IMG/VR virus record: IMGVR_UViG_3300008108_000037
Coordinates: 4,002-68,001 of that record
Length of the DNA: 64,000 nt
Strand: one strand, 5' to 3'
Origin: a virus
Lineage: Duplodnaviria; Heunggongvirae; Uroviricota; Caudoviricetes
The notes under the pieces are model-generated. The model was not told the origin of the DNA. It did not search any database and worked only from the letters and a program-made list of their open reading frames with translations. A program made the translations under genes and the position numbers. This document shows, piece by piece, positions 3,797 through 61,077 of this stretch; within the stretch, counting starts at the first letter, position 1, and every line of letters begins with the position of its first letter.

Positions 3797-4003
3797 ATGA
3801 CACACCAGTTTAACTTCTTTGAATCCCTAGATGGAAGGGAACTATTCCATTGGTTAGGTACACCATGTTTTATTTCAGATTACTACCAGAAAGAAAACGA
3901 TAATCTAGTTCAGATTACATCTTATGATGGTAGAGTATATGATGATGTCCCAGAGAGGGATTTGGAAAGTATGTCTCCTGAAGACATGGTAGGATTAGTT
4001 TAG
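3797..4003 (+). CDS. early hypothetical protein
   Basis: ORF between promoter and terminator. Confidence 0.75.
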   Translation: MTHQFNFFESLDGRELFHWLGTPCFISDYYQKENDNLVQITSYDGRVYDDVPERDLESMSPEDMVGLV

Positions 4004-18964: not shown

Positions 18965-19528
18965 CTAGAGAGAACTACTGTTCTGATAATACCCTAACTG
19001 GAAAACGATATATGCGATTTTATAGTTAGGGTATTTTATTATGTTTACAGAGATAGCTCCATATTTACAAAGTAACACATCGGAAACCTTGGAGTCTCCA
19101 AATTGCACAGTTCCTGTGTCTCCTACTCTTTCCTGTCTCGGAGCAACAATTCCACTAACATGATATTTAGATTGTAGCCATTTTCTAAGGGCATTCTCAG
19201 CAATGTGTTGGTAATTATCCTCTGCTGCAGAAAGGATAGGAACTGCAACAATCATTTCTTGTCCTTTAAAATCCTCCCATTCCTTTCCTCGATTGTGTCC
19301 CCAAGATTCTGTGGTTGAAACCCGGTTGTTCCATTTTTTGGCAGAATTATACCAAAACTCTGTCCAGATGAAAGGCTTTTGAGGCAAGGTTGCCCGATAG
19401 CTATTAATATGATCGAACACATATTTAGATAGTTGTTTATCTTCCGTGACACTTAATGGAGTTGCAGACTGAGCATATGATCTGACTGATAATAACACAA
19501 GAAGAGAAGAAACAATCAGGAATTTCAT
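18965..19528 (-). CDS. secreted CAP/SCP-domain protein
   Basis: Signal peptide; INSYRA...WGHNRG...WLQSKYH pattern. Confidence 0.65.
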   Translation of the reverse strand: MKFLIVSSLLVLLSVRSYAQSATPLSVTEDKQLSKYVFDHINSYRATLPQKPFIWTEFWYNSAKKWNNRVSTTESWGHNRGKEWEDFKGQEMIVAVPILSAAEDNYQHIAENALRKWLQSKYHVSGIVAPRQERVGDTGTVQFGDSKVSDVLLCKYGAISVNIIKYPNYKIAYIVFQLGYYQNSSSL

Positions 19529-24262: not shown

Positions 24263-25186
24263 ATGAAACACCTTAAACAGTTTACAAGATTTATTAACGA
24301 ACAGGAGGAAAAAAACCCAACACCTCCCCCACCCTCTGTTGGTTCAGGAATTGATACAACAGGACTGGGCGATATTTTTAAAGATGCTGCTAAGATTTTT
24401 AAGGATGCTGGATTTTTACCCGCTGACGCAGAAGGTGGAGGAATGACCTGGGGTGATAGACTACAAGCTACAGGGGAATACAAGGTTCCAAGTGCAGAGG
24501 AAGTGCAAAAAGGAGTTGATGCAGTTAATGCAGCTATGGATAGACATGGTATCACAGATAAAAATATGAGAGCTTCTATACAAGGAGTAATTGGTAAAGA
24601 ATCTGGTTGGGTACCTAAAAATGAGCATCCTTACACCAACACCTCCAATGATAGAATCAGAAAAATCTTTGGAAAAAGAGTTGCTTCATTAAGCGATGCT
24701 GAATTAAATATGATAAAAGCAGATCCAAATAAATTCTGGGACAGAGTTTATGGTCCAGATGACATAACAGGTGCTTCACAGAAAATGGGTAACACCAATC
24801 CTGGAGACGGAGCTAAATATTTAGGTAGAGGATTCAACGGAATCACATTTAAATCCGGATATGAGAAAATGCAAAAACTCTATAACCAGGACGGTAAACT
24901 CGGAAAATCAATTGATTTTGTGTCGAATCCTGATGCTTTAAATGATTTGGATGTTGCAGCGGAAGTTGCAGTACTTTATTTTGTTGACAATCTTAAAAAT
25001 CCAAAGGTAAAATCCATGTATGGATCAAATGATCCTAATGATTTTCCTGATAAAGACTCCGCTCTTAAAGCTGTATTTCACGTGAATGCAGGATTGGGCA
25101 ATAATTTATCCTCTCCGATTTTCCAAGAAACTTTAGCAAAGTCTGCAGATTTCAGAGACGACATGCTACAAAAAAATATGGTTTAA
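24263..25186 (+). CDS. GH19-like lysozyme/chitinase with capsid-targeting-like N-terminus
   Basis: GKESG, DGAKYLGRGFNGITFKSGY, NPDAL...AAEVAVLYF; MKHLKQFTRFINE. Confidence 0.8.
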   Translation: MKHLKQFTRFINEQEEKNPTPPPPSVGSGIDTTGLGDIFKDAAKIFKDAGFLPADAEGGGMTWGDRLQATGEYKVPSAEEVQKGVDAVNAAMDRHGITDKNMRASIQGVIGKESGWVPKNEHPYTNTSNDRIRKIFGKRVASLSDAELNMIKADPNKFWDRVYGPDDITGASQKMGNTNPGDGAKYLGRGFNGITFKSGYEKMQKLYNQDGKLGKSIDFVSNPDALNDLDVAAEVAVLYFVDNLKNPKVKSMYGSNDPNDFPDKDSALKAVFHVNAGLGNNLSSPIFQETLAKSADFRDDMLQKNMV

Positions 25187-26093: not shown

Positions 26094-28574
26094 ATGAAAA
26101 AATATCTCATATTATTTTTTATACTGCTTCCTTTTTTATCTTTTTCTCAAATTAAGTTATCAGGAAAGACCTATTCAAAATCCGAAAAATTATATTTCGT
26201 TCATATAGTAATTAAGGACGCATCACAGAAAGTGATTTCAACGACATCAGACCAAGATGGGAATTATAACATCTCGCTCTCTCAAGGAATATATGATATC
26301 TCAGCAACATATGTTGGATATAAAGATTTTAAAAAGCAAATAGATCTTAATACAGATTCTAATATGGATATCGTGATGGAAGAAAGCATCACAGGATTAA
26401 GCGAGGTTGTTGTCAGATCGGTTCCACAGAAAACAACAGAGATTTCTGTTATTAGAACTCTTAGAAATAGTAGCGTTGTTTCTGATGGAATTGCAATAGA
26501 TTTTATTAAAAAAACCCCAGACAGAAATGTTGGAGATGCACTCAAAAGAGTAAGCGGGGTAACAATACAAAATGATAGATTTGTTTTGGTTAGGGGGTTG
26601 GCAGACAGATACAATTCAGCTTTATTAAATAAAACTCCTTTACCATCAACCGAACCTGATAGGAGAGCATTTTCTTTTGATATTATTCCTACATCTCTTA
26701 TCGATAATATTATTGTTTCCAAATCTGCAGCAGCGAATCTTCCCGGAGATTGGTCTGGTGGACTAGTACAAATCACAACTAAAGAGATCTCTGATAACTT
26801 TCTCAACATCTCATTTGGTGGAAGTGCAGGATTAGTGTCCTCGTTTAAAAATTTTAATGCCGTTGATCCTGTCAATTTTCCATCGTCTTTTCCTTCAACA
26901 TATCGGTACAGAATAAGTGGAAATGGTGATAAAAGAGCATTCACGAAATTGATATCAAATCCATTAATGGAATCATTTACTTCAATCCCCAATTTAAATG
27001 GAGGGATGAGTGCTGGATTTAAATTGGATAAAATTAATGTTCTTCTAAGTTCTACAGTTCGTAACACATATTCTCTTAATTATATAGAAAGGACAGACTA
27101 CCAATCTTCAACTGAATTAGCTTACGATTACAGGGACACTATGTACTCTAAAAGATTTTCTGCAAATGGTCTCTTGAATCTTACCTATTTGGGGAAAAAC
27201 AGATACAGCTGGAAAACCCTATTTAATTATCAAAGCGATGATAGTTATCTTTCAAGAATTGGTCAAAACCTTGATAATGTTCAGGATGTTAGAAGCAATT
27301 CATCCAATCATATTAATAACATTGTAGTCAATTCTCAATTTGACGGAAAAATAAAAACCATAGATTTTAATCTTGGGTATAATTTTATCTTCAGAGAACA
27401 GCCAGATTACAGGGTAAACCCGATTACAAAATCTCTAGGTATAAATGAACCATATGCAACTGCTTGGAGAGACACTTACAGATTTTGGAGTGTTATGGAT
27501 GAGAATTCTTTCAATGGAAATTTAAATAAGGACTTTGGAAAAATCAGGGTTGGCGGAGGGTATCTCAAAAAAATAAGAGGATTCAATGCAAGGGTTTTTA
27601 GGTATCTTTCCACTGATATGCTAGACGAGATCACAAATAATACTGACAGATATAATGCAGAATTTGATCTTGGTAGTTTATATAGCATGTATGAGAATGA
27701 TTTTGGTAAATGGAAATTAAACACTGGATTAAGAGGGGAGTATAACACTTTTGATGTATTAACTGCAGATTTTAGTGGACAAAAGGTAAATGTAAATAGA
27801 GAGTATTTGGATATTTTGCCCTCTCTAAATCTTTCTTATAATCTTGAAAAAACAAAATATAGATTCTCGTTAAGTAAAACCCTTTCTAGACCGGAGTTTA
27901 GAGAGGTTGCTAATTTTGCTTATTATGATTTTATCAGAAATGCCCAACTTTTGGGAAATCCCAAATTAGAAAAATCTGACATTTATAATTTGGATATTAA
28001 ATATGAATTCTATCCAAAAACTGGAGAAAACTTTTTTGTATCATTTTTCGGAAAAAATTTTATAAGACCAATAGAACAGATAGTAGCTGATGGATCAGTA
28101 CCTTCTAATCTATTACTTACTTATACAAATCCAGAGAATGCTATACTCTATGGAATGGAGCTAGAGTTTAGAAAAAAAATAAACGAATGGTTTGATTTTT
28201 ACACAAATGCTTCAATTATGAATTCCGAGGTAGAAATAAATGGCAGAAAGAGACAATTGCAGGGACAATCTAATTATGTTTTAAACGGAGGAATAAATTT
28301 GAACAGAAAAAATAACACACTAAATTTAACTTACAATAGAGTAGGAGACAGAATTTCCGCTGTTGGATTTCAAGGATATCCAGATATCTTTGAAAACAGC
28401 AGAGATGTTCTAGATGTTACATTTCTACATAAAATAAAATCTGGAGAGATCAAAATATCAGTTAGTGATGTGTTCTCCCAACCCTCTGTATACTATCAAA
28501 AGATTTCAAACAGAAATCTTATAAAAACAAATAATGAAAGTATAGTTTCGATATCAATGAATATAAATCTATAA
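26094..28574 (+). CDS. TonB-dependent receptor (Bacteroidota type)
   Basis: Signal peptide, carboxypeptidase-regulatory-like N-domain, plug (DALKRVSGVT...VRGLADRYN), barrel, ends in aromatic/aliphatic strand. Confidence 0.92.
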   Translation: MKKYLILFFILLPFLSFSQIKLSGKTYSKSEKLYFVHIVIKDASQKVISTTSDQDGNYNISLSQGIYDISATYVGYKDFKKQIDLNTDSNMDIVMEESITGLSEVVVRSVPQKTTEISVIRTLRNSSVVSDGIAIDFIKKTPDRNVGDALKRVSGVTIQNDRFVLVRGLADRYNSALLNKTPLPSTEPDRRAFSFDIIPTSLIDNIIVSKSAAANLPGDWSGGLVQITTKEISDNFLNISFGGSAGLVSSFKNFNAVDPVNFPSSFPSTYRYRISGNGDKRAFTKLISNPLMESFTSIPNLNGGMSAGFKLDKINVLLSSTVRNTYSLNYIERTDYQSSTELAYDYRDTMYSKRFSANGLLNLTYLGKNRYSWKTLFNYQSDDSYLSRIGQNLDNVQDVRSNSSNHINNIVVNSQFDGKIKTIDFNLGYNFIFREQPDYRVNPITKSLGINEPYATAWRDTYRFWSVMDENSFNGNLNKDFGKIRVGGGYLKKIRGFNARVFRYLSTDMLDEITNNTDRYNAEFDLGSLYSMYENDFGKWKLNTGLRGEYNTFDVLTADFSGQKVNVNREYLDILPSLNLSYNLEKTKYRFSLSKTLSRPEFREVANFAYYDFIRNAQLLGNPKLEKSDIYNLDIKYEFYPKTGENFFVSFFGKNFIRPIEQIVADGSVPSNLLLTYTNPENAILYGMELEFRKKINEWFDFYTNASIMNSEVEINGRKRQLQGQSNYVLNGGINLNRKNNTLNLTYNRVGDRISAVGFQGYPDIFENSRDVLDVTFLHKIKSGEIKISVSDVFSQPSVYYQKISNRNLIKTNNESIVSISMNINL

Positions 28575-28576
28575 AA

Positions 28577-29779
28577 ATGAAAAATTTACTGTTGCTATTT
28601 TTAGCTTTTCTATCGTTTGGATGCTCAAAAGATTTGGGTGGAATAGACGACCCTATCAATGTTCCTCTTACAACTACTTTGAGCGGAACGTACAATGAAA
28701 CGATAACCTTAACATCCGATAAGGTGTGGACTCTAAAAGGTTATGTTTACATCACAAACGGATCTAGGTTAGTAATTCAACCAGGAACAACGATCATCTC
28801 AGATGTTGCAGAAAAAGGAGCACTTTGTATAGAAAGGGGTGCACAAATAATTGCGGACGGAACTCCATCAAAACCAATTGTATTTACATCAGGTAAACCG
28901 GAGGGGCAAAGAGCACCTGGTGACTGGGGAGGAATTGTTATACTAGGTATGGCAAGAACAAATCGTTCATCTGAACCAACTATAGAAGGAGGTATCGGAA
29001 GAGCTTATGGAGGAACTTTAGATAATGATAATAGTGGGATTCTTCGTTATGTAAGAATTGAATACGCAGGTATTGCAGCAATGCCAAATTCTGAAATTAA
29101 TGCATTAACATTAGGCGGTGTTGGCAGCGGAACAATCATTGAAAATGTTCAAACCATTTACGCCAATGATGATGCTTTTGAATTCTTCGGTGGAACTGTT
29201 TCACCTAAAAACCTATATGCATTTGCAACTGCGGATGATGATTATGATTTTGATTTTGGATACACAGGTACAGTAACAAACGGTGTTTCAAAAAGAGACC
29301 CACAATTTGTGGACAATGGCGATGCTGGGAACGGTGTTGAATGTGATAATGATGGCACGGGTTCTCCTGCTCAGCCCTTCACACACCCTAAATTAAATGG
29401 TATGATATTAATCGGACCGTTCGATGCAACTTCATTAGCAAATCATAATCTGGGTTTAAGGTGGAGAAGAGCAACACAATTTACAATGACAAACTCTAAA
29501 GTATTGGGCTATCAAAAAGGAGGATTCTCCATTGAAAGCAACGAAACTGCACAAGCATACAAAGACGGGGTTTCTAAATTCCAAAACAATGAAATTCAGT
29601 CTTTTGATCCACTTCAAAACTTTAGGTCAACCTCGACAGTATTTACCGCAGTCCAAATGAAAGAAAAAGCATTAGGTGAAGGTAATGTTGAAAAAAATTA
29701 CACAAAAGCGGAATTGGAAGCACTTTCCAAACCCGTGTGGAGCAACGGGTGGACCAGATTCCCATCGAAGGGAAATTAA
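28577..29779 (+). CDS. lipoprotein with parallel beta-helix fold, partner of the TBDR
   Basis: Lipobox FGC; GAPGDWGG, DNSGILRYVRIEYAG, INALTLGGVGSGT, DDAFEFFGG motifs. Confidence 0.85.
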   Translation: MKNLLLLFLAFLSFGCSKDLGGIDDPINVPLTTTLSGTYNETITLTSDKVWTLKGYVYITNGSRLVIQPGTTIISDVAEKGALCIERGAQIIADGTPSKPIVFTSGKPEGQRAPGDWGGIVILGMARTNRSSEPTIEGGIGRAYGGTLDNDNSGILRYVRIEYAGIAAMPNSEINALTLGGVGSGTIIENVQTIYANDDAFEFFGGTVSPKNLYAFATADDDYDFDFGYTGTVTNGVSKRDPQFVDNGDAGNGVECDNDGTGSPAQPFTHPKLNGMILIGPFDATSLANHNLGLRWRRATQFTMTNSKVLGYQKGGFSIESNETAQAYKDGVSKFQNNEIQSFDPLQNFRSTSTVFTAVQMKEKALGEGNVEKNYTKAELEALSKPVWSNGWTRFPSKGN

Positions 29780-36843: not shown

Positions 36844-36893
36844 AAAATATTTAGCTGCATTAGATTTCTAGCACGATTGAGGATATATAAATC

Positions 36894-37024
36894 AGAAAAA
36901 ATCCTCATTCCGTGCGAAAGAATACACGACTTTCCACGTATACTTTTTGAGAGAGATCTCCGAAGCCACACGACCTTCGGGGCGCATTCTCCGTAAGCGA
37001 ATTACAGATTCGAGGGTTTTTTCT
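36894..37024 (+). ncRNA. structured RNA element, copy 1 (unassigned family)
   Basis: Closed by AGAAAAAATCCT/AGGGTTTTTTCT; shares 28-, 17- and 9-nt blocks with 44062-44173. Confidence 0.75.
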
Positions 37025-37042: not shown

Positions 37043-37483
37043 ATGGGATTTCTAGAAAAGATTTTTAACCCAACCTCACAAACGCAGGTTCCAGACAAGC
37101 AGAACCGTTTCAACGCAATTCTACAGAGAATGATGGCCACGAGATGGTACATCACAGCATTAACACTTTTCACCTTTGTGATTATTGCTGGTGGTATTTT
37201 AGTGTCTATTGCTTCAGGTACAGAGGTCAATCAGGAGTGGAAAGAAATTCTCCTTCTAATGCTCGGCGCATTTATCGGATCTTACAACAGGGTTATTGAT
37301 TATTGGTTCAATAACGATCAGAGAGATCAAGTACTTATTCAGAAAGTTGACGAGGAAGATGATGATCCAGGAACAGAAAAGAAAACCTTTGCATTCCAGG
37401 AAGAGATAAAAAATAACGATCCTCTATCTTCTTCTGCTTCTCAATCAAAAAATGAATCATCTTATGAAGAAGAATCTATTTAA
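37043..37483 (+). CDS. two-TM membrane protein
   Basis: Start MGFLEK at 37043 downstream of the RNA element; EWKEILLLMLGAFIG. Confidence 0.8.
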   Translation: MGFLEKIFNPTSQTQVPDKQNRFNAILQRMMATRWYITALTLFTFVIIAGGILVSIASGTEVNQEWKEILLLMLGAFIGSYNRVIDYWFNNDQRDQVLIQKVDEEDDDPGTEKKTFAFQEEIKNNDPLSSSASQSKNESSYEEESI

Positions 37484-37970
37484 AATCCTGATTTCGGTTT
37501 TTTTACTGATGGTTTGCATTCCTGTATTTTCACAGGAAAAGAAGATTACTGTAGGTGATATAAAAAATAAAATATCGATAGGCAATCTCACAGGGTCTAG
37601 ACAATTGACCTTCGGATTTAAAAATATACTACTGGAATTTTTACAGGAAAAAGACTATCCAGTAGTTGAAGATGATGAGGCTTATGATATAAAAATAAGT
37701 CTAGATCTACTTTTCTTCGATGTTGAAACTACCAAATCTAACCTGTCTGTTTTTCATAGAGATAATGCAGAAACAGTATTAAGGGTTAAAGCTTATGCAT
37801 ATGATTCATCTGGCAAGAAAATTAAAGAGGTAGTTATCACAGAAAAATCATCAGAGATCTCAGTTTCAACCCTCGTAATAGACGAAGGTGGCGGTATAAA
37901 TCAACAATCTGTCTCTAATGTTATTAAAAAGGTTTGTGATTCCGCTATAAAACAATTATTAACAAAATGA
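37464..37970 (+). CDS. secreted CsgG/TolB-N-like alpha/beta protein
   Basis: Signal peptide; architecture parallels 45140-45859. Confidence 0.55.
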   Translation: MKKNLFKILISVFLLMVCIPVFSQEKKITVGDIKNKISIGNLTGSRQLTFGFKNILLEFLQEKDYPVVEDDEAYDIKISLDLLFFDVETTKSNLSVFHRDNAETVLRVKAYAYDSSGKKIKEVVITEKSSEISVSTLVIDEGGGINQQSVSNVIKKVCDSAIKQLLTK

Positions 37971-39616
37971 AAAAGCTAATTTTATTTTTTGGGATATTTT
38001 TAATATCTCTCACGACGTTTGGTCAATTAAGTGTTACGCAAACAATTACCCCTACTACAGGACTGAAGGTTGGTGACACATTAACTGTAAAATATACAGT
38101 AACAAGGGGAACTACAACCCCTCGTTATTTTTGGTTGAGATACTCATTTAACAATAAAGCTTTGGCTATGGTACCAAATAGTACTGTCTTTACACAGGGA
38201 TCATCAACACAAACGTTCTTTACTCTTTGGAATAATTATGCATTTACTCCATCCCAAACTGCGGCAGCAACTAGCTTGTATGCACAGTATCAAGCTACTC
38301 CTTGGGCTTACACTGCAAACAATGATTGGAATGTTGGGCAATTAACAGTTCAAAGAACTGATGCATCGATCAATGGCGACATTGCAACTCAAAAATATGT
38401 ATTAAAGGATCAAAACACGTATAACAATATACATAAACTGGATTTAGCATACGCCATTAATGATACGTCAGTAAACATTTCTCCAATCACAAAAAGCTCT
38501 ACTGATCTATCATTAACAAACGTAACTGGTAATACTTCCCAATTCAAGGTTAAAGTGTTATTTCCTCAGGGATATACGATCACAGATCATAATGTTCAAT
38601 TAATGAAATTAAAAAATGATGGAACGGGAGCAATTGATTGGTCTGTTCCGCCAATTGCCCAATTACCATTAGATGCTACAGGCGAAGCACTATTTACAAC
38701 TCAGGTTAAAGTTGGGGATTCTGTTGGGGTGTTTGTATCTCCCGCTTCTCAGAAAGCTTGGATGAATAATGTCATTACTGTATCTGATGCGTACAAAGCA
38801 TTCCTAGGACATTCTCAAACAGACATTAGTGGAAATCCAACCTATTTTACCTATCCTAACTTAGAAAAACTTGTTGGTAATGTATCAAAAAATGATGCAA
38901 TTTTTAATGAAACAGATTCCTATTATCTATTTGCATACGTGATGGGTCAAGACGTTTCAGCGAATGCTTTTATTCCAACACAAACCGCAACCTCCTGGAG
39001 ATGGAATAGTGGTTTATTAAACCAAAGCTGGTTGGATGGTAATATTAAGAACAAGGTAACTATTGATACCCCAATTAAAGAAGTGTATGCTGTATTTGCA
39101 TGGGGTGGAGATTTAGATTGGTCACATTCATCTTCGACTGCAGAAATTGTAAGCAGAATTAATGCAGGTCAATATACAAATTCAGTAAACTCGATTAATG
39201 CTAAAACGACGATGTCAACTCAATCCATGGCTTACAGAACAGAAGCATTGGAAACAGCTAAATTAAGTGTATCGTCATCCTTAGAAGCTGGCAAAGTTGT
39301 TTTAAAAGCAACATTAACTAAAGAAGAATTAGCAGGACTACAAGTTATTATGCAGTACGATAACACAAAACTAACTTTAGATAATGTAATATTTGATGCA
39401 GGAAGCACTATTACCAATTTCTCTACACACGACAATGGTAGATTAACTTTCGGTTCTATCGATCAGCTAAAGACTGCTAGAATTAAAACCGGAACACCAT
39501 ACAAATTGGTGTTTACTCCAAAAGTAAATCTACAAAATACCGCAGGATTATTCTATTTCGTGTTAGCAGATGCAGTAGATGCAAATGGTAACAAGGTCGA
39601 CCTGACTATAGAATAA
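37967..39616 (+). CDS. secreted cohesin-like/dockerin-like protein
   Basis: Signal peptide; LKVGDTLTV...F N-domain; TVSDAY..GNV..ND..FNETD; C-terminal AGLQVIMQYD cohesin-like. Confidence 0.65.
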   Translation: MKKLILFFGIFLISLTTFGQLSVTQTITPTTGLKVGDTLTVKYTVTRGTTTPRYFWLRYSFNNKALAMVPNSTVFTQGSSTQTFFTLWNNYAFTPSQTAAATSLYAQYQATPWAYTANNDWNVGQLTVQRTDASINGDIATQKYVLKDQNTYNNIHKLDLAYAINDTSVNISPITKSSTDLSLTNVTGNTSQFKVKVLFPQGYTITDHNVQLMKLKNDGTGAIDWSVPPIAQLPLDATGEALFTTQVKVGDSVGVFVSPASQKAWMNNVITVSDAYKAFLGHSQTDISGNPTYFTYPNLEKLVGNVSKNDAIFNETDSYYLFAYVMGQDVSANAFIPTQTATSWRWNSGLLNQSWLDGNIKNKVTIDTPIKEVYAVFAWGGDLDWSHSSSTAEIVSRINAGQYTNSVNSINAKTTMSTQSMAYRTEALETAKLSVSSSLEAGKVVLKATLTKEELAGLQVIMQYDNTKLTLDNVIFDAGSTITNFSTHDNGRLTFGSIDQLKTARIKTGTPYKLVFTPKVNLQNTAGLFYFVLADAVDANGNKVDLTIE

Positions 39617-39619
39617 TTT

Positions 39620-41926
39620 ATGAAAAAACTCGTATTCATATTTTTAATATTGTTGAATTCAGTCTTGGTTCTAGGGCAGCAAGTGAACTCCCCAGACCCA
39701 AAAACCTTTATTCAAGGCACAGTTTCTCAAGATGCTAGTGGATTCTCTCTTAGTGGATTTAATTCAACTGTAACCCTATTATGCGCTATCGGGTTACCAC
39801 AAGCACCAACAGGAACAACTTTTAGTTTAACTACAGTTTCGGGTCTTACCCCTGCAAGCGGTTATACTATGAACGGTAATAAAACTCGTTTGGCATTTAC
39901 TGGAACAATGGCTAATATTAATGCTGCCTTAGCAACATTAAAAATAAACACAACAGCAACTGCAGGTGCAATTAACATTTCAGTATCTGCAACAGTAAAC
40001 CCTACTGGTTATTTTTACAATCCAACAAACGGACACTTTTATAGACCTATATCAACCGGAGCAACTTATACAAATGCAAGAACATTATCATCTCAACAAA
40101 CATTCAAAGGTCAACAAGGATATTTGGTAACGATAACATCAGCAGATGAAGATGCTTTTATATTTGCTAATGTTCCACAAGCTAGTATTTGGTTTGCACT
40201 AACGGATGAAGCGGTTGAAGGTCAATGGAGAATTGATGCAGGACCGGAAGCAGGAACTTTAATAAAAACTGCAAACGGACAACTTAATGGAAACGTAGTA
40301 GGACAATATAATAACTGGGCCGGTGGTGAACCAAACAATTCTGGTAATGAAGATTATGCTGTAACTAAATGGGGTGGTGGAAATCAATGGAATGATTTAC
40401 CTAATAATTTTAGCTGTGCTTATGTAGTTGAATTTGGAACTTGGACTAATCCTGATGACCAAACTTTTACCGAATTCTATTCCAATAGTGTAACACATTC
40501 AAATGGTGAAACCTTAAGGTTACAATTTACCTTCGATTTTGGTAACAATATAGACGAGACCAAATTTAAAACCAAAATGTTTACATATACTGATTATGTG
40601 TCTGGACCTTACAATGAAGCGGTTACTGGAACTACCTATACATCTTTAAATGGATTAGGAAAAACAGATAAAACAAATGATATTGATCTAGTAAAAATAA
40701 ATTCCGGACAAAAGGCAACTATATCAACAGGACAGGCTGAATTTTCTTATGTTAACATATCAAACAACACTACAACATTATACATTGATCTGTCCAGATT
40801 TGGTGGAGTAGATCCGTCAACAATAAGTAATGTCAGTATTTTAGATGCATATAACGGTCCAGTAACATATCAGCAAACTTCAACATATTGGGCACATTAT
40901 ATAGTACCCTCAGCATTAACAAAAATCACTAACGGGACGTCTTCATTTAATTCAAGTATAAGAAATGCTGGAAATAATAACTGGGCATTTATGTCCAATA
41001 TATCATTTTCACAAAATCAAATTTTTAAAAATCATGCGATCTTGTTTCAATCTTATAATTCAAGCGAACTTCAGACTTTACTTTCGCAGATTGTAACAAT
41101 TTCAGATGTTTATTTAGCATTTAAAGAATTTTCAGACAGGGGTATATTTGGAAATTCAAATGGACAGTATTTTCAATCGGGTATTCAATTTCAAAATGCT
41201 GATGTTAATCATGATAATGTTTTTGACGAGACTGATTGCTTTAAGTTGCTTAAGTATTTGCAGGGAACAGAAAATCTTTGGGAAAGTGCAGCTCTTCCAT
41301 ATGTAATGAAAATAGTTCCAAAATCCACCTATGATGATATTAATAAGAATAACTGGAACACATTCGGGGCTTATGAATTTCTGAGATCCAAATATCCTAT
41401 CACTTTAAATGATGGTGTGTTAAATTCCCATGTATTAAATGTTACATGGAAAGGTGACGTAAATCTTTCGCACTCTCCTGCACAATCCGCGAGCGGATCT
41501 ATAGCAAACCAATCTCTTTCTTTTTCTTCTGTTGCAATGCAGAATGTCGTTAATAGCGAGTCACCCACAGCTTATATTGTTTCACAAATTTCTGGAGATG
41601 TCTTGGATGTAATTATAAAATTCAATTCAAAATCCAATCCTATAGTCGGTACACAATTTCAAGTTAATTACGATAACACTAGAATTAAATATGTTAGTAC
41701 AGATTTTAAAATAAAGGGGTCCCCATCAAATTTTGATGCTAACAGGGGATCTTTTATAAATCTTGGATCCTTAGTTACCAGCGGCGAACTTCTAGACCCG
41801 CTTGCAGAATACAGATTAACTTTTAAACTAAAAACAAACCTTTCAAATTCTCTAGGATTGATTTCTATAGCATCTAACGAAGCGGTAAATCAAACTGGGC
41901 AATCAATAAAAATAAGAATAGAATGA
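39620..41926 (+). CDS. secreted C-type lectin + dockerin + cohesin-like protein
   Basis: NGHFY...GYLVTITS..WFALTD..EGQW..WAGGEPNN..EDY..WND; ADVNHDNVFDETD; GTQFQVNYD. Confidence 0.8.
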   Translation: MKKLVFIFLILLNSVLVLGQQVNSPDPKTFIQGTVSQDASGFSLSGFNSTVTLLCAIGLPQAPTGTTFSLTTVSGLTPASGYTMNGNKTRLAFTGTMANINAALATLKINTTATAGAINISVSATVNPTGYFYNPTNGHFYRPISTGATYTNARTLSSQQTFKGQQGYLVTITSADEDAFIFANVPQASIWFALTDEAVEGQWRIDAGPEAGTLIKTANGQLNGNVVGQYNNWAGGEPNNSGNEDYAVTKWGGGNQWNDLPNNFSCAYVVEFGTWTNPDDQTFTEFYSNSVTHSNGETLRLQFTFDFGNNIDETKFKTKMFTYTDYVSGPYNEAVTGTTYTSLNGLGKTDKTNDIDLVKINSGQKATISTGQAEFSYVNISNNTTTLYIDLSRFGGVDPSTISNVSILDAYNGPVTYQQTSTYWAHYIVPSALTKITNGTSSFNSSIRNAGNNNWAFMSNISFSQNQIFKNHAILFQSYNSSELQTLLSQIVTISDVYLAFKEFSDRGIFGNSNGQYFQSGIQFQNADVNHDNVFDETDCFKLLKYLQGTENLWESAALPYVMKIVPKSTYDDINKNNWNTFGAYEFLRSKYPITLNDGVLNSHVLNVTWKGDVNLSHSPAQSASGSIANQSLSFSSVAMQNVVNSESPTAYIVSQISGDVLDVIIKFNSKSNPIVGTQFQVNYDNTRIKYVSTDFKIKGSPSNFDANRGSFINLGSLVTSGELLDPLAEYRLTFKLKTNLSNSLGLISIASNEAVNQTGQSIKIRIE

Positions 41927-42273
41927 CAAGGGTTTTACTAACTATATTAATTGTTTCATCTCTTTGGGGGTGTCGAAAAATGGAAATAGAGCCAATTCCT
42001 CCATCAAGGAATGAGGACATTTTTTCTACCAAACAAGCATCTGTCTCCGACGATGCCCCCATAAATTTCAATTTAAAAATCGAAGGAATTTACACGTTAA
42101 CTCTCTTTGATCCTGTGAGCCAGCAGGTAGTAACAAGAGAAAGAATTTTTGGAATTACAGGAAATAACACATTCAAATTATACACGAAGGCGTTACCAAC
42201 GAATCAAGTTTATTTATTGTTACAAGATGAAAACAATAATGAAATCGGAAAAACGCTTCTAGTGATAAAATAA
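41923..42273 (+). CDS. lipoprotein with T9SS-CTD-like Ig fold
   Basis: Lipobox WGC; YTLTLFD...VV......G.N...LYTKALP...Y.L. Confidence 0.55.
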   Translation: MTRVLLTILIVSSLWGCRKMEIEPIPPSRNEDIFSTKQASVSDDAPINFNLKIEGIYTLTLFDPVSQQVVTRERIFGITGNNTFKLYTKALPTNQVYLLLQDENNNEIGKTLLVIK

Positions 42274-42284
42274 AAAATAAAAAA

Positions 42285-42653
42285 ATGAAAAAAATAATTT
42301 TAGCAGCATTTATTTCATCCATTGTTATGGGATGTAACAAGATGGACATTGAAATGCCTTCACCTCCAGCCCCGGATCGATTAGCTATTGAATCTTCTGT
42401 TGGTATCAAATTGGAATCACCTTTTGTTACCTCAGAAGTATCAATGAACGTTAAGAGTGATATAACTCAAACTGTAAGTATTAGGATCTATGATATCTCA
42501 AATAGAGTTGTTTCCAAAGAGACTGTAAACGTAAAGGCTGGAGATAATATTTTAAAAGTTTATACCTCAGCTTTACCATCTTCAGCATATAGGATTGGCT
42601 TATATGATTCAAAAGGAAACGAGTTAGGTATTACCGATTTTAACAAGCTTTAA
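42285..42653 (+). CDS. lipoprotein with T9SS-CTD-like Ig fold
   Basis: Lipobox MGC; IRIYDISNRVV...VKAGDN.LKVYTSALPSSAYRI. Confidence 0.65.
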   Translation: MKKIILAAFISSIVMGCNKMDIEMPSPPAPDRLAIESSVGIKLESPFVTSEVSMNVKSDITQTVSIRIYDISNRVVSKETVNVKAGDNILKVYTSALPSSAYRIGLYDSKGNELGITDFNKL

Positions 42654-42688
42654 ATCTAGAAGGAGGGAGCAATTTATGACACGACAAA

Positions 42689-44044
42689 TTGATGAAAAAA
42701 TTAATAATATTTTTTTTATTGACAATAGCCCTCAAGGTAAATGGTCAAATCTTTACTCAGACTTATGTTGATAAATGTACAGGGGAAATAAAAACAGTAA
42801 CTACAACACCCATGGGAAATGGTATGGTTGTAGTTGCTTTTTATAATCAGATAAAAACATTTTCGAGCACTGACTTGACCAACGGAACGGTTCAGACGTG
42901 GCTTAATCAGGTTTATTCTGATTATAATTCGAGGCCCTGTCCTGTTATCAGTGTGGTCCAGCAAACGGTAACCCAAGCAGTTGCCCAACAAGCAGCTGCA
43001 GCCGCAGCTTCTGCAGCATCCTCTGCAGCAAGTGCATCAGCTAGTGCTGCAGCAAGTTCTTCTGCCAGTACTGCAGCAAGTTCTTCCGCTAGTAGTTCTG
43101 CAGCAACTTCATCGGCTAGCTCTCCACCACAGAGCAGCTCGTCGCAAAGCGGGGGTAGTTCCTCTTCAAATTCGTCGCAAAGCGGAGGTAGCTCATCATC
43201 TTCAGAATCAAAAAATGAAACTAAATCTGAGGGAACAAAATCGGAAAGTAAATCAGAGGAGAAGAAAGAAGAAAGTAAATCTGAATCTAACGAAGAGAAG
43301 AAGGAGGAAAAGAAAGAAGAATCCAAGGAGGAGAAAAAGGAGGAGGACAAGAAAGAAGATAAAAAAGACGATAAAAAGAAGAAGCAACAAAATACGAATC
43401 CAACTTTAATTGCATCAGATCTTGCGGTTACCCAGAGTGCAGATGGCAGATACACCGCGATGATTTCAACCGGCATAAGTAAGTCTTCTATGACGGGAAC
43501 GAGCTCGTGGGGTTTAACCTCTTTGATATGGGCAACTTTTGATCAGTTTGCTCTAAACGGGGGCTATACCAAAATGAATTTTGATAAGGGTAAACTAAAT
43601 AATATAAAATCATATTCGATGACCGCTGCTTATTTGCAGGGAAATTTTATGATCATGCAGGGACACACATACATTAGGCCACATCCTAAGATTGGAACAT
43701 ATGGATACAATGTGGGTGTTATCAGTTTACTGATAAAGAATGGAAACAGGTATGACTATTCTCTTTCGAGCTCTTTAGTTGGATTTTGGACCAAGCCATA
43801 TCAGATGAACAAGAGACTTTCTATCTCACCGCAGGTTTTTATAACATCTTCTCCCATAGCTTGGAACCCGTCAACAAACCAGACTGTAGTTAGCAAGGAT
43901 TTTGGTTATATGGGAGGTGCTTCGTATGACTATAAATTAACCAAGAGATTTGGAATGAATTTTAGTTACAGATTTGCTGGATCGACAAAAGAAGGATCCA
44001 AGATACTTCACAATTTCATGATAGGATCAAGAATTTTGTTATAG
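42689..44044 (+). CDS. secreted protein with Ser/Ala and Glu/Lys linkers and C-terminal beta-barrel-like domain
   Basis: Signal peptide; low-complexity middle; alternating amphipathic strands at C-terminus. Confidence 0.75.
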   Translation: MMKKLIIFFLLTIALKVNGQIFTQTYVDKCTGEIKTVTTTPMGNGMVVVAFYNQIKTFSSTDLTNGTVQTWLNQVYSDYNSRPCPVISVVQQTVTQAVAQQAAAAAASAASSAASASASAAASSSASTAASSSASSSAATSSASSPPQSSSSQSGGSSSSNSSQSGGSSSSSESKNETKSEGTKSESKSEEKKEESKSESNEEKKEEKKEESKEEKKEEDKKEDKKDDKKKKQQNTNPTLIASDLAVTQSADGRYTAMISTGISKSSMTGTSSWGLTSLIWATFDQFALNGGYTKMNFDKGKLNNIKSYSMTAAYLQGNFMIMQGHTYIRPHPKIGTYGYNVGVISLLIKNGNRYDYSLSSSLVGFWTKPYQMNKRLSISPQVFITSSPIAWNPSTNQTVVSKDFGYMGGASYDYKLTKRFGMNFSYRFAGSTKEGSKILHNFMIGSRILL

Positions 44045-44061
44045 AAAAAAGATATATAGAA

Positions 44062-44173
44062 GTGAAAAAATCCTCATTCCGTGCGAAAGAACACAAAAGC
44101 CTTTCCACGTATACTTTAATGGGAGAGTTAGAAAACTCTCAAAAAAGCGAATTTAAGATTCGGATTTTTTCAC
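44062..44173 (+). ncRNA. structured RNA element, copy 2 (unassigned family)
   Basis: Closed by GTGAAAAAATC/GATTTTTTCAC; compensatory changes relative to copy 1. Confidence 0.75.
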
Positions 44174-44244
44174 ATGAGAATAAAAAGAAGAACTGTATTA
44201 AATGTATATGTTTCTGATGACAAAAAAGAATATAATTTAAAATC

Positions 44245-44559
44245 ATGGCAGAAGAAATGCAAGAAACAGAAGGAACTTGGACTGGTCTGAAAAAAACAAT
44301 TGTGGGAACGTTAGCTACAGTTGTAACAGCCGGTGGTGCTTGGCTCGGAACTACTCTTTTCGGGGGAGGTAGTGACAATGCTGCTCCAGCTGCTGCTCCA
44401 GCTCCGATTATTAACATTACCAATTCTAACCAGCAAGCTCAGCAAGCTGCAGGAGGTAAAACAGTAATAATCAAAGAAAAAGCTTCCTCTGAAAAACCAG
44501 CAGAAAAGAAAGAGGAAAAGAAAAAAGACGAATGGACCAAAGAGGAGCCTAAATGGTAA
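44245..44559 (+). CDS. membrane-anchored protein
   Basis: One TM, Ala/Pro/Gln and Lys/Glu-rich tail. Confidence 0.75.
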   Translation: MAEEMQETEGTWTGLKKTIVGTLATVVTAGGAWLGTTLFGGGSDNAAPAAAPAPIINITNSNQQAQQAAGGKTVIIKEKASSEKPAEKKEEKKKDEWTKEEPKW

Positions 44560-44595
44560 ATCTCAATCCTTTTGCAGAATATAAAAACACACGAC

Positions 44596-44853
44596 ATGAA
44601 AAAATTCTTTTCACAGCTTTTTAGCGACGACAACAGTATTAACGAAAAATCCGTTGTTGGGTTCTTAGCTTTCGTAATGATGGCATTATTTGCTGTCGCC
44701 GACATTGTAACAGGTTACTTGGGTAAGGATTTAGTAATCAATGAGTTCATCTTTAACGCCTTCCTTTGGTTGGTACTTGGATCTTTTGGAATAGGATCCG
44801 TTGATAAGTACATCAATAAGAAGGGAAGTTCTAATGACGAAACTGTTGAGTAA
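44596..44853 (+). CDS. two-TM membrane protein (holin-like)
   Basis: ACACACGACATG start; INEKSVVGF...LGSFGIGSVDK. Confidence 0.75.
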   Translation: MKKFFSQLFSDDNSINEKSVVGFLAFVMMALFAVADIVTGYLGKDLVINEFIFNAFLWLVLGSFGIGSVDKYINKKGSSNDETVE

Positions 44854-44910
44854 GAGTCAAAAAAAAGAGTGTAGGTAAATCCTACACTCTTTAAAATATT
44901 ATAAAATAAA

Positions 44911-45129
44911 ATGAAAATCTTACAACAAGTAGAAAAATTTCTATTCACAACATTTGCTCTATCAGCTACAGCATTTGTTTTTTGTGCATTTTGTGTACAA
45001 CTGGCTTTTGTTTATATGCACTTTACCAAGACCGAAGAGGAGCAACTCAAAATCTCTAATGATATAACTTGGAAAATCGACGGAAGATGGGGTGATACAC
45101 CAGGTAATATTTGGTACGAAGGAAAATAA
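44911..45129 (+). CDS. small membrane protein
   Basis: One TM. Confidence 0.65.
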   Translation: MKILQQVEKFLFTTFALSATAFVFCAFCVQLAFVYMHFTKTEEEQLKISNDITWKIDGRWGDTPGNIWYEGK

Positions 45130-45139
45130 TCTCATATAC

Positions 45140-45859
45140 ATGAAAAAGATTTTATTCACCCTAATATTGGGACTGATCTCTGCTGCATCATATGCTCAGG
45201 TAGTAGGACAAACTAAGACTGAAGATTATAAGGCTTCCTTCGAAAAAAAGATTAACATAGATTCATTAATGGATTATGATGGTCCAACAATACCAATTCA
45301 GCTATTGAATCTTGGTATTAACGAGGAGGTTTATGCCATGTATCCGGAACTCAAGGATAAAAGAGTAGGTCTAGGAGTGACTAATATCGTAATTGAATTC
45401 TTCGAAGAAATGGGGAGATTCACTTTCACTGAGGATAAAACGGAAATTAAAAATAGAATGGTAAAGCAATTCCAAGCAAGCCAATCGGGATTTACTGAAA
45501 ACAAATTAGACGGAAGAGGAAAGATAAAACTTGCTAGATACTTTGTTTACATTGAAGTTTATGATTTTTCAGTTTCTGAAGATGAAACCGTTAATCTAAA
45601 AAATGGAGTTAAAAACACTATGGTTACTAGACTTGGTATGCAAGTTAAATTTGTTGATGCAGAGACTGGAGAATTTTTTACAGGATCTGGATTGGGAGAA
45701 GCTAAAACCGTAAGGGAATTAACATTGATGAATGATGAAAATTTCTCAGAGGTTAAGTTTAACCAATCGACCATAGGAACTTCTACAAAGAAAGCTTTGG
45801 AAATTGCTTCTAGTAGAATTTTAGTAAGAATGATAAAGAAGGGTATTTTCCAAAAATAA
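45140..45859 (+). CDS. CsgG/HfaB-family protein
   Basis: Signal peptide; GLGVTNIV...RF.F.E.K; VYDF..; RLG.QVKFVDAETGE...GSG.GE. Confidence 0.8.
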   Translation: MKKILFTLILGLISAASYAQVVGQTKTEDYKASFEKKINIDSLMDYDGPTIPIQLLNLGINEEVYAMYPELKDKRVGLGVTNIVIEFFEEMGRFTFTEDKTEIKNRMVKQFQASQSGFTENKLDGRGKIKLARYFVYIEVYDFSVSEDETVNLKNGVKNTMVTRLGMQVKFVDAETGEFFTGSGLGEAKTVRELTLMNDENFSEVKFNQSTIGTSTKKALEIASSRILVRMIKKGIFQK

Positions 45860-45918
45860 TCCTAAATTATTTTTCTTAAGACTATTCTTTAGTCACGACC
45901 TAAAGTAAAAGTATTAAG

Positions 45919-46563
45919 ATGAAAAATAAAATCTATGAGGGAATAATATTTACCCTCATATTACTAATCACACTGTCCGGAATTTCTGGATGTAAAAATT
46001 CTAAAGAACAGAAAATGCCTACAGTTGAGGCATCAATTCCTTCCAAGGATACAATTCCAGTCCATGATACAGTGTATGTTGAAACTGAGGTTGAGGTGCA
46101 AGTTCCTGTAGAAATAATCAAAGAAAGAATAGAATATAGAGAGGTAGAAGCTAAGGTCGACACTGCTGCTATACTTGCTATATTTTTACAGAAAAAAAGC
46201 GTTATTGACACGCTTAAGCTAGAATATGGATACATTTATTTAACCGATACCCTATCAGGAAATTCCATAGTTTCTAGAAAATTCATCCCTAAAATTAAAG
46301 TTCCTTCCAAGGAAAAAATAGTTTACGAAGAAAAAGAGCCAGAACCATCTTTTTATATTGGAATCAACTCTGGATTAGACAAACCAAATTATGTTTACAA
46401 CTTGGGAACTTCTCTATTTTATCAAACACCAAGATCTGGGATGTATCAAGTGGGTATTGGGGTTTGGAATCAAACCATAGATGGGATTAATGGTAAATTC
46501 GTTCCCTATATTACAGGGGGTTACTACTGGAGAATAAATTTAAAAGGTAGAAGGGAAAAATAA
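45919..46563 (+). CDS. lipoprotein (possible spanin/envelope protein)
   Basis: Hydrophobic N-terminus with SGC lipobox; DTIPVHDTVYV repeats; beta-rich C-terminus. Confidence 0.65.
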   Translation: MKNKIYEGIIFTLILLITLSGISGCKNSKEQKMPTVEASIPSKDTIPVHDTVYVETEVEVQVPVEIIKERIEYREVEAKVDTAAILAIFLQKKSVIDTLKLEYGYIYLTDTLSGNSIVSRKFIPKIKVPSKEKIVYEEKEPEPSFYIGINSGLDKPNYVYNLGTSLFYQTPRSGMYQVGIGVWNQTIDGINGKFVPYITGGYYWRINLKGRREK

Positions 46564-60558: not shown

Positions 60559-61077
60559 ATGAAACTACCGGTTTTATTTTTGTTCCTAATAAGTGTCACT
60601 AGTTCACTTAGATCACAGACAGTTCTGGTTCATGATCCTGTATCAAACATGAAGATCCTCCAAGCCTGTGAAATTCTTAGAGAGAATGAGGGAGAGATAT
60701 ACGAGTCTATAGTTCAGCATTCCAATCTACAAAAATATAAAGATCCGGATAATTCCTTTAATAGTACCTGTAGTTATGATGTTTCTAGTGGATCCCTTTG
60801 GATATTAATCGGTGAGGGATCTCTTTATGATCGGAGCGTATATAGATTGGCAGGAACAATTTATCACGAATCCCTCCACTTGCTACTCAAATTACAAAGA
60901 CAGAGAGAAGGTAGGATCGTAAATTTTTCAGATTTATCCGCACAGGAAAGGAAACAAGAAGAGATTTTTATCTATAAAAAAACAAAAGAACTATTGAAAA
61001 AAATTGGAACTCCTTTATGGGAAATCCAGGAGTATGATCAATGGTTAGAAGGGGCAAAAAACAAAAACTATTTTTAA
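60559..61077 (+). CDS. secreted HExxH protein
   Basis: Signal peptide; IYHESLH. Confidence 0.7.
   Translation: MKLPVLFLFLISVTSSLRSQTVLVHDPVSNMKILQACEILRENEGEIYESIVQHSNLQKYKDPDNSFNSTCSYDVSSGSLWILIGEGSLYDRSVYRLAGTIYHESLHLLLKLQRQREGRIVNFSDLSAQERKQEEIFIYKKTKELLKKIGTPLWEIQEYDQWLEGAKNKNYF

Follow-up and report, generated by a model that had tools for sequence, protein, structure and literature searches.

What does a phage gain from a block of genes whose products are all directed to the envelope of its host? The question is raised by twelve co-oriented open reading frames (ORFs), here named g01 to g12, on the plus strand at positions 37043-46563 of a 64,000-nt stretch of DNA (positions 4,002 to 68,001 of IMG/VR virus record IMGVR_UViG_3300008108_000037), which we refer to as the window. 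The source record is 132 kb long with a CheckV completeness of ~40%, meaning that it is a fragment of a jumbo phage genome. The best explanation of our results is that the block is a module which belongs to a large clade of freshwater Bacteroidota phages and re-equips the envelope of the infected cell. More specifically, we propose, with a probability of roughly 0.4, that the module equips the outer membrane of the infected cell with a glycan-binding assembly of cohesin, dockerin and lectin, and that g07 and g11 are an outer-membrane unit which the phage itself supplies.

A signal peptide, a lipobox or a membrane segment was found in all twelve products. Type-I signal peptides are carried by g02, g03, g04, g07 and g11, and in all five the residue at +1 of the predicted cleavage site is Gln (FS/Q, FG/Q, LG/Q, NG/Q and YA/Q, respectively; the slash marks the cut). 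Gln right after the signal-peptide cut is the signature known as the Bacteroidetes Q-rule. A lipobox with its Cys was observed in g05 (LWGC), g06 (VMGC) and g12 (ISGC). The four other products (g01, g08, g09 and g10) are small and contain one or two membrane segments each. A single hydrophobicity threshold was passed by ten of the 12 module genes, compared to 11 of the 94 other genes in the window (Fisher p = 5.9e-7). A preliminary description, based on the letters of the window alone, had claimed twelve consecutive envelope-directed genes; with a targeting signal in every gene and the enrichment given above, the claim holds. The positions of the genes, their modules and a duplicated leader element are listed in Table 1.

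Table 1. Features of the envelope-directed module and its leader elements (window coordinates).
Feature	Position (nt)	Strand	Description
Leader copy 1	36882..36946	+	~100 nt upstream of g01; 65-nt conserved element common to copy 2
g01	37043..37483	+	146-aa small inner-membrane protein; hydrophobic 39-57, probably a second segment; acidic tail
g02	37452..37970	+	172-aa secreted protein, CsgG/LpoB-type core fold
g03	37967..39616	+	549-aa secreted scaffold-like protein
g03, dockerin-like segment	~38753-38953
g03, C-terminal cohesin-like domain	~39239-39613
g04	39620..41926	+	768-aa secreted protein, lectin, dockerin-like and cohesin-like
g04, C-type lectin	~40028-40510
g04, dockerin-like segment	41072-41299
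g04, C-terminal cohesin-like domain	~41537-41923
g05	41923..42273	+	116-aa lipoprotein; lipobox, then a beta-sandwich like the sorting domain of the T9SS (type IX secretion system)
g06	42285..42653	+	122-aa lipoprotein, same kind as g05
g07	42689..44044	+	Signal peptide, Cys N-domain, low-complexity linker, C-terminal barrel
g07, N-domain	42746-42964		~70 aa, two invariant Cys (family alignment)
g07, linker	42965-43381		~140 aa, Ala/Ser-rich, then Lys/Glu-rich
g07, barrel	43382-44041		C-terminal 12-stranded outer-membrane beta-barrel
Leader copy 2	44051..44117	+	~130 nt upstream of g08
g08	44245..44559	+	104-aa bitopic inner-membrane protein
g09	44572..44853	+	93-aa protein, two membrane segments, holin-like topology
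g10	44911..45129	+	72-aa protein, one membrane segment; orthologues in 25 loci, mostly upstream of g02
g11	45140..45859	+	239-aa secreted CsgG-family protein; most conserved module gene
g12	45919..46563	+	214-aa lipoprotein or N-terminally anchored envelope protein; lipobox ISGC

Relatives of the module were compared by tblastn and by clustering of all ORFs in about 115 loci. In this survey of synteny across phages, a check that the preliminary description had proposed, g01-g11 were found together in about 100 related phage loci, whereas the flanking genes of the window recurred in just three or four closest loci; the module is therefore more than a chance block. The gene order is shuffled between clades, with an invariant core order of a g03-type gene, g08, g01 or g09, g11 and g07, then a lectin protein and a g02-type gene. 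Scans of viral contigs located g04 relatives at 35 loci and g11 relatives in 288 stretches, on contigs of up to 434 kb. The lake phages that conserve the module are a very abundant group, the g11 family alone comprising 6416 clusters at 90% identity, many of which were named CsgG by JGI. In 185,579 species genomes, the g11 family was seen in only eight contigs of metagenome-assembled genomes, labelled Sediminibacterium, Flavobacterium and other taxa. Being nearly absent from cellular genomes, the family is essentially phage-specific.

Besides a large clade of uncultured phages of fresh water, one cultured phage conserves the block, vB_FspM_immuto of Flavobacterium (NC_055915), a myovirus of 160 kb, which has a compact seven-gene version (gp013-gp019). 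There, gp013 is the lectin, gp014 and gp015 belong to the g03 family and have a terminal sorting domain, gp016 is g08, gp017 is g11 (55% identity), gp018 is g07, and gp019 is g02-like. Compared to the window, immuto has no g01, g05, g06, g09, g10 or g12, and its module is embedded among replication genes, not tail genes, 8 kb from its endolysin. For five of these seven genes, the only annotation is hypothetical protein. That the locus is phage-borne, as had been claimed, is supported by its source, a virus record of IMG/VR, and by the occurrence of the same module in this cultured myovirus. The module region gave no megablast match among GenBank phages, nor did the g07 barrel by tblastn, although local BLAST reached immuto gp018 through the N-domain. 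No study of the module turned up in the literature library when it was searched for jumbo-phage CsgG, T9SS cargo of phages, phage proteins with cohesin, dockerin or lectin domains, and phage immuto. De Jonge et al. (2019; PMC6949934) briefly noted T9SS sorting-domain ORFs in gut phage contigs, and in BFVD one protein of an uncultured phage carries the automatic name CsgG.

Scanned directly with Pfam and PHROG, the proteins of the window gave almost nothing, and family alignments were needed. The scaffold-like protein g03 and the lectin-bearing g04 are paralogous over their C-terminal 300 aa (E 1e-12), and in the cohesin comparison both align throughout. Within the g03 family (20 members), Pfam recognised Cohesin in 15 (best E 1.4e-11) and the T9SS sorting domain, Por_Secre_tail, in 11 (best E 1.1e-11). 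The profile of the family matched the solved cohesins 4ums and 6kg8, as well as the T9SS sorting-domain structures 8glj and 5jvk. The profile of the dockerin segment matched 25 PDB sequences, of which the top seven and most others are dockerin-bearing (best 8ajy, E 1.4e-4). Pfam Dockerin_1 was found in only two of the 20 members; the first Ca loop is degenerate, and so is the loop of g03. The description of g03 and g04 as two cohesin/dockerin-type proteins is thus borne out at the level of the family, with the dockerin part as a probable one. The lectin of g04 was recognised directly, with a Pfam Lectin_C score of 26.3 bits against a cut-off of 22.6. The EPN and WND motifs, which bind Ca and sugar in such domains, read GEPNN...WNDLP, and EPN...WND is present in 58 of 58 related lectin proteins; the lectin protein of immuto is 37% identical to g04.

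Both cellulosomal and non-cellulosomal cohesin-dockerin assemblies resemble the module in its Pfam-recognised cohesin and in dockerin-like Ca-loop repeats that match dockerin structures. The differences are that the module is found in a phage of a Gram-negative host, that the cargo is a lectin with no glycoside hydrolase, that both modules are in one chain, and that the relatives anchor by a T9SS sorting domain, not by S-layer homology domains or sortase; the binding itself is predicted. In the deep-branching relatives (the 11 of 20 mentioned above), the cohesin protein ends in Por_Secre_tail, as does type-A cargo of the T9SS of Bacteroidota. The window departs from such cargo, since neither g03 nor g04 has the sorting domain, both ending at the cohesin domain, and since it has the stand-alone lipoproteins g05 and g06, which lack the PNP motif.

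The two lipoproteins are paralogues (32% identity, E 5e-17). When g05, g06 and a third lipoprotein family of another clade were aligned by hhalign to the true sorting domains of deep-branching g03-type proteins, the match extended over 72 columns with a probability of 96.6% (E 6.9e-10), which corroborates the proposal of two lipoproteins resembling the C-terminal domain of T9SS cargo. Pfam Por_Secre_tail remained below the cut-off in g06 (18.3 vs 27 bits). Lipoproteins of this type occur only in clades whose g03-type protein has no fused sorting domain, and they lie directly downstream of that gene. For this reason, the best reading of their origin is gene fission of the T9SS sorting domain.

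The barrel of g07 was modelled by AlphaFold2 (AF2) with a predicted local distance difference test score (pLDDT) of 92.9. Foldseek with the barrel returned FapF, NanC and autotransporters, and the VIA Z scores were 21.9 for NalP, 20.6 for KdgM, 19.6 for FapF, 19.0 for EspP and 18.7 for AIDA-I. The linker was evident in the alignment, so that the description of g07 as a linker-tethered beta-barrel stands. Overall, g07 has the same order of parts as the type Va autotransporters NalP, EspP and BrkA, i.e. signal peptide, N-terminal domain, linker and 12-stranded barrel. The predicted architecture is that of type Va autotransporters, with no membership recognised by sequence: Pfam Autotransporter matched none of 35 barrel orthologues, and weak OMP_b-brl hits were obtained in three. 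Unlike in autotransporters, the "passenger" of g07 is only ~70 aa long and sits on a 140-aa low-complexity linker. Its N-domain matched no known family by Pfam or PDB sequence-profile search, and the coiled-coil N-domain of FapF is not present in g07.

For g11, a direct Pfam search gave no hit, and a PDB sequence-profile search gave no meaningful one. The AF2 model calculated from 16 sequences (pLDDT 71) returned CsgG structures on top in Foldseek (E 5e-7). VIA-align superposed g11 on CsgG with Z 12.3 and a root-mean-square deviation of 3.8 over 171 aa, compared to Z 8-10 for the generic fold of LptE/PelC. The fold of CsgG, the curli channel of type VIII secretion (PF03783), is thus present over nearly the full length of g11. 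A profile of 44 sequences, run against 1.8 billion representatives, matched only 337 clusters. Among these matches are cellular proteins (E 1e-15 to 1e-18) whose matching region scores 32-46 bits on PF03783 (cut-off 20.8). The fold match and a profile that reaches PF03783-passing proteins together identify g11 as a true CsgG-family homologue, which is periplasmic or associated with the outer membrane. As a separate observation, cellular relatives of the g11 domain (P0202, P0210, P0212, P0236 and P0249) are fusions to caspase (Peptidase_C14) or Ser/Thr kinase domains, suggesting that the CsgG-type domain is widely used as a periplasmic module, besides its use as a pore.

Several features set g11 apart from CsgG. 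Neither g11 nor its orthologues have a lipobox; the signal peptides are of the type-I cleaved kind and end in AQ/V, AQ/T or GQ/T, with no conserved Cys. No clear amphipathic membrane hairpins were seen. The predicted long hairpin (134-173) has invariant E147, D148 and E149 on its outward face and is hydrophobic at the tip only. We had considered g11 as a curli-type channel or pore, and this candidate was downgraded after inspection of the hairpin columns, which have an acidic face and no lipid-facing pattern. In contrast to the curli system, a Pfam scan of ten module products found no CsgA, CsgB, CsgE or CsgF partner, and g11 is phage-specific. The suggestion that the CsgG-like proteins export surface polymers was therefore not borne out for g11, which has neither the lipobox nor the clear membrane hairpins of the CsgG channel.

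The second protein of this kind, g02, probably has the core fold of CsgG and its relatives HfaB, LpoB and PelC. The ESM Atlas model of the exact g02 protein had a TM-score of 0.72 to a Bacteroidota cluster that is 100% PF03783, and hhalign related g02 weakly to the g11 family, with common motifs (probability 57%, E 1e-4). No direct Pfam or PDB sequence hit was obtained for g02, its PDB sequence-profile search gave nothing meaningful, BLAST between g02 and g11 gave nothing, and hhalign against a single PF03783 protein was not significant. Accordingly, of the two CsgG/HfaB-like proteins that had been described, g11 is confirmed and g02 is moderately supported.

Taken as a sequence of steps, the module could work as follows. 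Host Sec would carry the proteins across the inner membrane, the host beta-barrel assembly machinery (BAM) would insert the g07 barrel, and Lol would sort the lipoproteins. The cohesin scaffold would then reach the surface, in the relatives through the host T9SS, and would hold the lectin by cohesin-dockerin contacts. The infected cell would gain a Ca-dependent coat that binds glycans of the mannose or N-acetylglucosamine type, with g07 and g11 as the anchor or translocation unit supplied by the phage to the outer membrane. Such a coat might serve adhesion or aggregation, or else the masking of surface glycans. The module is not self-contained, as the preliminary description had it: the cohesin protein of deep-branching relatives ends in a genuine T9SS sorting domain, so that its export in these phages depends on the T9SS of the host, while Sec, Lol and BAM of the host would be needed in every clade. 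The envelope-directed parts that had been claimed, however, were identified (CsgG-family proteins, cohesin/dockerin modules, lectin and barrel). We must also note a more far-reaching version of the same proposal, which we regard as doubtful. It describes a widespread surface-display machine of phages in which a non-lipidated CsgG homologue and a stalked autotransporter-like barrel act with a cohesin-dockerin scaffold that hijacks the host T9SS, or bypasses it after fission of the sorting domain, and in which the lectin coat alters the sticking of the cell to particles, cells and phages.

Some observations weigh against a surface assembly of this kind. In the window itself, Pfam Cohesin stays below the cut-off in g04 (21.2 vs 24.1 bits) and gave no direct hit in g03, and Dockerin is below the cut-off in g04. 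Having no sorting domain, g03 and g04 of the window may not cross the outer membrane at all, and they could act in the periplasm. A CsgG-like pore is doubtful for g11, which has no lipobox and whose long hairpin shows an invariant acidic belt in place of a lipid-facing face. Finally, of the 48 related loci whose flanks were complete, 40 have a homologue of the endolysin (phrog_181, E 5e-68 to 7e-70) within 10 kb of g11, and in 54 of 69 it shares the strand of g11. In one clade g09 and g12 are directly beside the endolysin, which points to lysis. The frequency of this endolysin and holin-like linkage, which the preliminary description had overlooked, makes a lysis-related role a real rival. In such a role, g08, g01 or g09, g11 and g07, with g12, would form an envelope-spanning complex that assists in breaching or detaching the outer membrane at the end of infection, as a functional stand-in for spanins, and the lectin and cohesin genes would be co-located cargo. 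To our knowledge, spanins have not been defined for these phages. The gene order of that clade (a protein with a membrane segment and a coiled coil, g09, g12, endolysin, g02, g03, g08, g11, g07) fits this role, as does the composition of the core, whose inner-membrane protein has a periplasmic tail and whose outer-membrane protein has conserved Cys and a linker of periplasm length. On the other hand, the endolysin of the window lies 12 kb upstream of the module, with transporter and metabolic genes between them, and the immuto module, as described above, is placed among replication genes 8 kb from the endolysin. A beta-barrel could not fuse membranes as spanins do, and the small membrane proteins matched no holin or spanin family. 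Moreover, lectin and cohesin genes are unexpected in a lysis cassette, yet they are conserved as much as the core. On balance, we consider the lysis role unlikely.

Somewhat less probable still is a function in superinfection exclusion or receptor control, where surface structures of the host on which phages rely, such as T9SS-exported gliding adhesins or surface glycans, would be blocked or remodelled. The mimics g05 and g06 might, for example, occupy the T9SS, or the lectin might cover glycan receptors and so keep progeny from being lost on debris. Receptor-blocking phage lipoproteins such as T5 Llp and phi80 Cor are an established precedent, g05 and g06 do present sorting-domain-like folds on a lipid anchor, and the sugar-binding motif of the lectin is strictly conserved. 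These lipoproteins are, however, confined to clades that lost the fused sorting domain and lack the PNP motif; they look like a fission product, not a purpose-built decoy, and the invariant core (g11 and g07) has no link to exclusion. It is very improbable that the module is a true curli- or Fap-like system for amyloid secretion, in which g11 and/or g07 would be the exporter of an unfolded fibre subunit, with the Q/N-rich g08 as a candidate. The best structural matches do include both known amyloid secretion channels, CsgG for g11 and FapF for g07. Nevertheless, no Fap partner was present among the ten products scanned, nor any of the Csg partners discussed above. In addition, g11 is no lipoprotein and is without clear membrane hairpins, by Z score the autotransporter and KdgM barrels match the g07 barrel no worse than FapF does, or better, and g08 has a membrane anchor and no imperfect repeats. 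The least probable reading, and a very unlikely one, is that the products are virion parts (tail fibres or decoration proteins) with no more than a resemblance to envelope proteins. Lectin folds and Ig-like or cohesin-like folds are common on virions, but the products have cleavable Q-rule signal peptides and lipoboxes, and no tail or head genes are adjacent to the module in the window or in immuto. The earlier argument against tail fibres, which relied on the Sec signals, is strengthened by the T9SS sorting domain in relatives and by the integral outer-membrane barrel of g07.

Most phage genes known to change the surface of the host are single lipoproteins or porin-like morons. In the present block, seven to twelve genes unite four principles of secretion or display, namely the CsgG family, an autotransporter-type barrel, cohesin-dockerin modules and the T9SS sorting domain. 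Each part comes from a known family; what is new is that a phage combines them and that the sorting domain is split. If infected cells do acquire a lectin coat, effects on particle attachment, aggregation and phage transmission among freshwater Bacteroidota would be expected, and the module would be a naturally occurring cohesin-dockerin display system in the envelope of a Gram-negative cell. That the sorting domain apparently split off to form stand-alone lipoproteins is odd in evolutionary terms and open to testing, and bench work is feasible with the cultured pair that has the module, phage immuto and Flavobacterium sp. LMO8.

The small membrane proteins of the module were also compared among the loci. 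Orthologues of g01 were found in 76 loci, mostly between g08 and g11, and g01 had no Pfam or PHROG hit; g09 had no PHROG hit. BLAST between g01 and g09 gave nothing, so that homology does not account for the way in which they alternate between g08 and g11 in relatives. In 96-99 loci g08 is present, nearly always directly upstream of g01/g09-g11. Its alignment shows an acidic N-terminus, a Gly/Thr-rich membrane segment, the conserved "PVINI.N..QQ", a Lys/Glu tail and an invariant C-terminal Trp. In g08 and 22 orthologues, this Trp follows the Lys/Glu-rich tail as PKW, APW or SPW, and the tail looks like a docking peptide for a partner protein. The lipobox Cys of g12 is not conserved, many orthologues in the alignment having an N-terminal anchor only. 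The term lipoprotein, as used in the preliminary description, is thus appropriate for g12 of the window and not for many of its orthologues. The Atlas neighbours of g12 include DUF6808, and the gene adjoins the endolysin in many relatives.

The leader element is a 65-nt repeat composed of a core, AAATCCTCATTCCGTGCGAAAGAA, followed by CTTTCCACGTATACTTT. It has exactly two copies in the 64-kb window (repeat families D4 and D16), and its 24-nt core likewise has exactly two occurrences, against 0 expected. A CGAAT...ATTCG hairpin and a T-run come after each copy. The four loci closest to the window likewise have the leader upstream of g08. Rfam matched no family to the element or elsewhere in the module region. 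Heading the g01 and g08 blocks, the two copies probably mark two transcription units with a common leader; what is confirmed is the repeat. In the nearest clade (L002-L036), the order is g10-g02-g03-g04-g05-g06, then g08-g01-g09-g11, then g07; compared to it, g01 and g10 are swapped in the window and g07 is ahead of g08. This differing order may have arisen by recombination between the two leader copies.

Other secreted genes were noted near the module in relatives. A nuclease resembling NUC1/endonuclease G, with a signal peptide, adjoins the module in immuto (gp012; L125 6936-7514) and in at least nine related loci, and one is also present elsewhere in the same phage record, outside the window (G000:C1:130278-130892). 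In deep-branching relatives (L083 14348-15558; equivalents in L081, L090, L098, L109 and L114), two extra secreted genes follow the g02-type gene. One encodes a 150-aa protein with an HExxH (HESYH) motif, and the other a 247-aa protein with a terminal aromatic residue, which looks like another outer-membrane barrel.

The surroundings of the module in the window are typical phage genes, encoding the endolysin (24263-25186), a carbamoyltransferase, a methyltransferase, a kinase-like ATPase, a 2-oxoglutarate-Fe(II) oxygenase, an HNH/Srd-like protein and a Ro60-like RNA-binding protein. Between the endolysin and the module, at 26094-29779, the same phage has further candidate outer-membrane genes, which encode a protein of 826 aa and a lipoprotein of 400 aa, each with a signal sequence. 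Outside the module, Bacteroidota-type signal peptides were also observed in the ORFs at 18965-19528 (minus strand; ..YAQ/S) and 60559-61077 (plus strand; ..RSQ/T).

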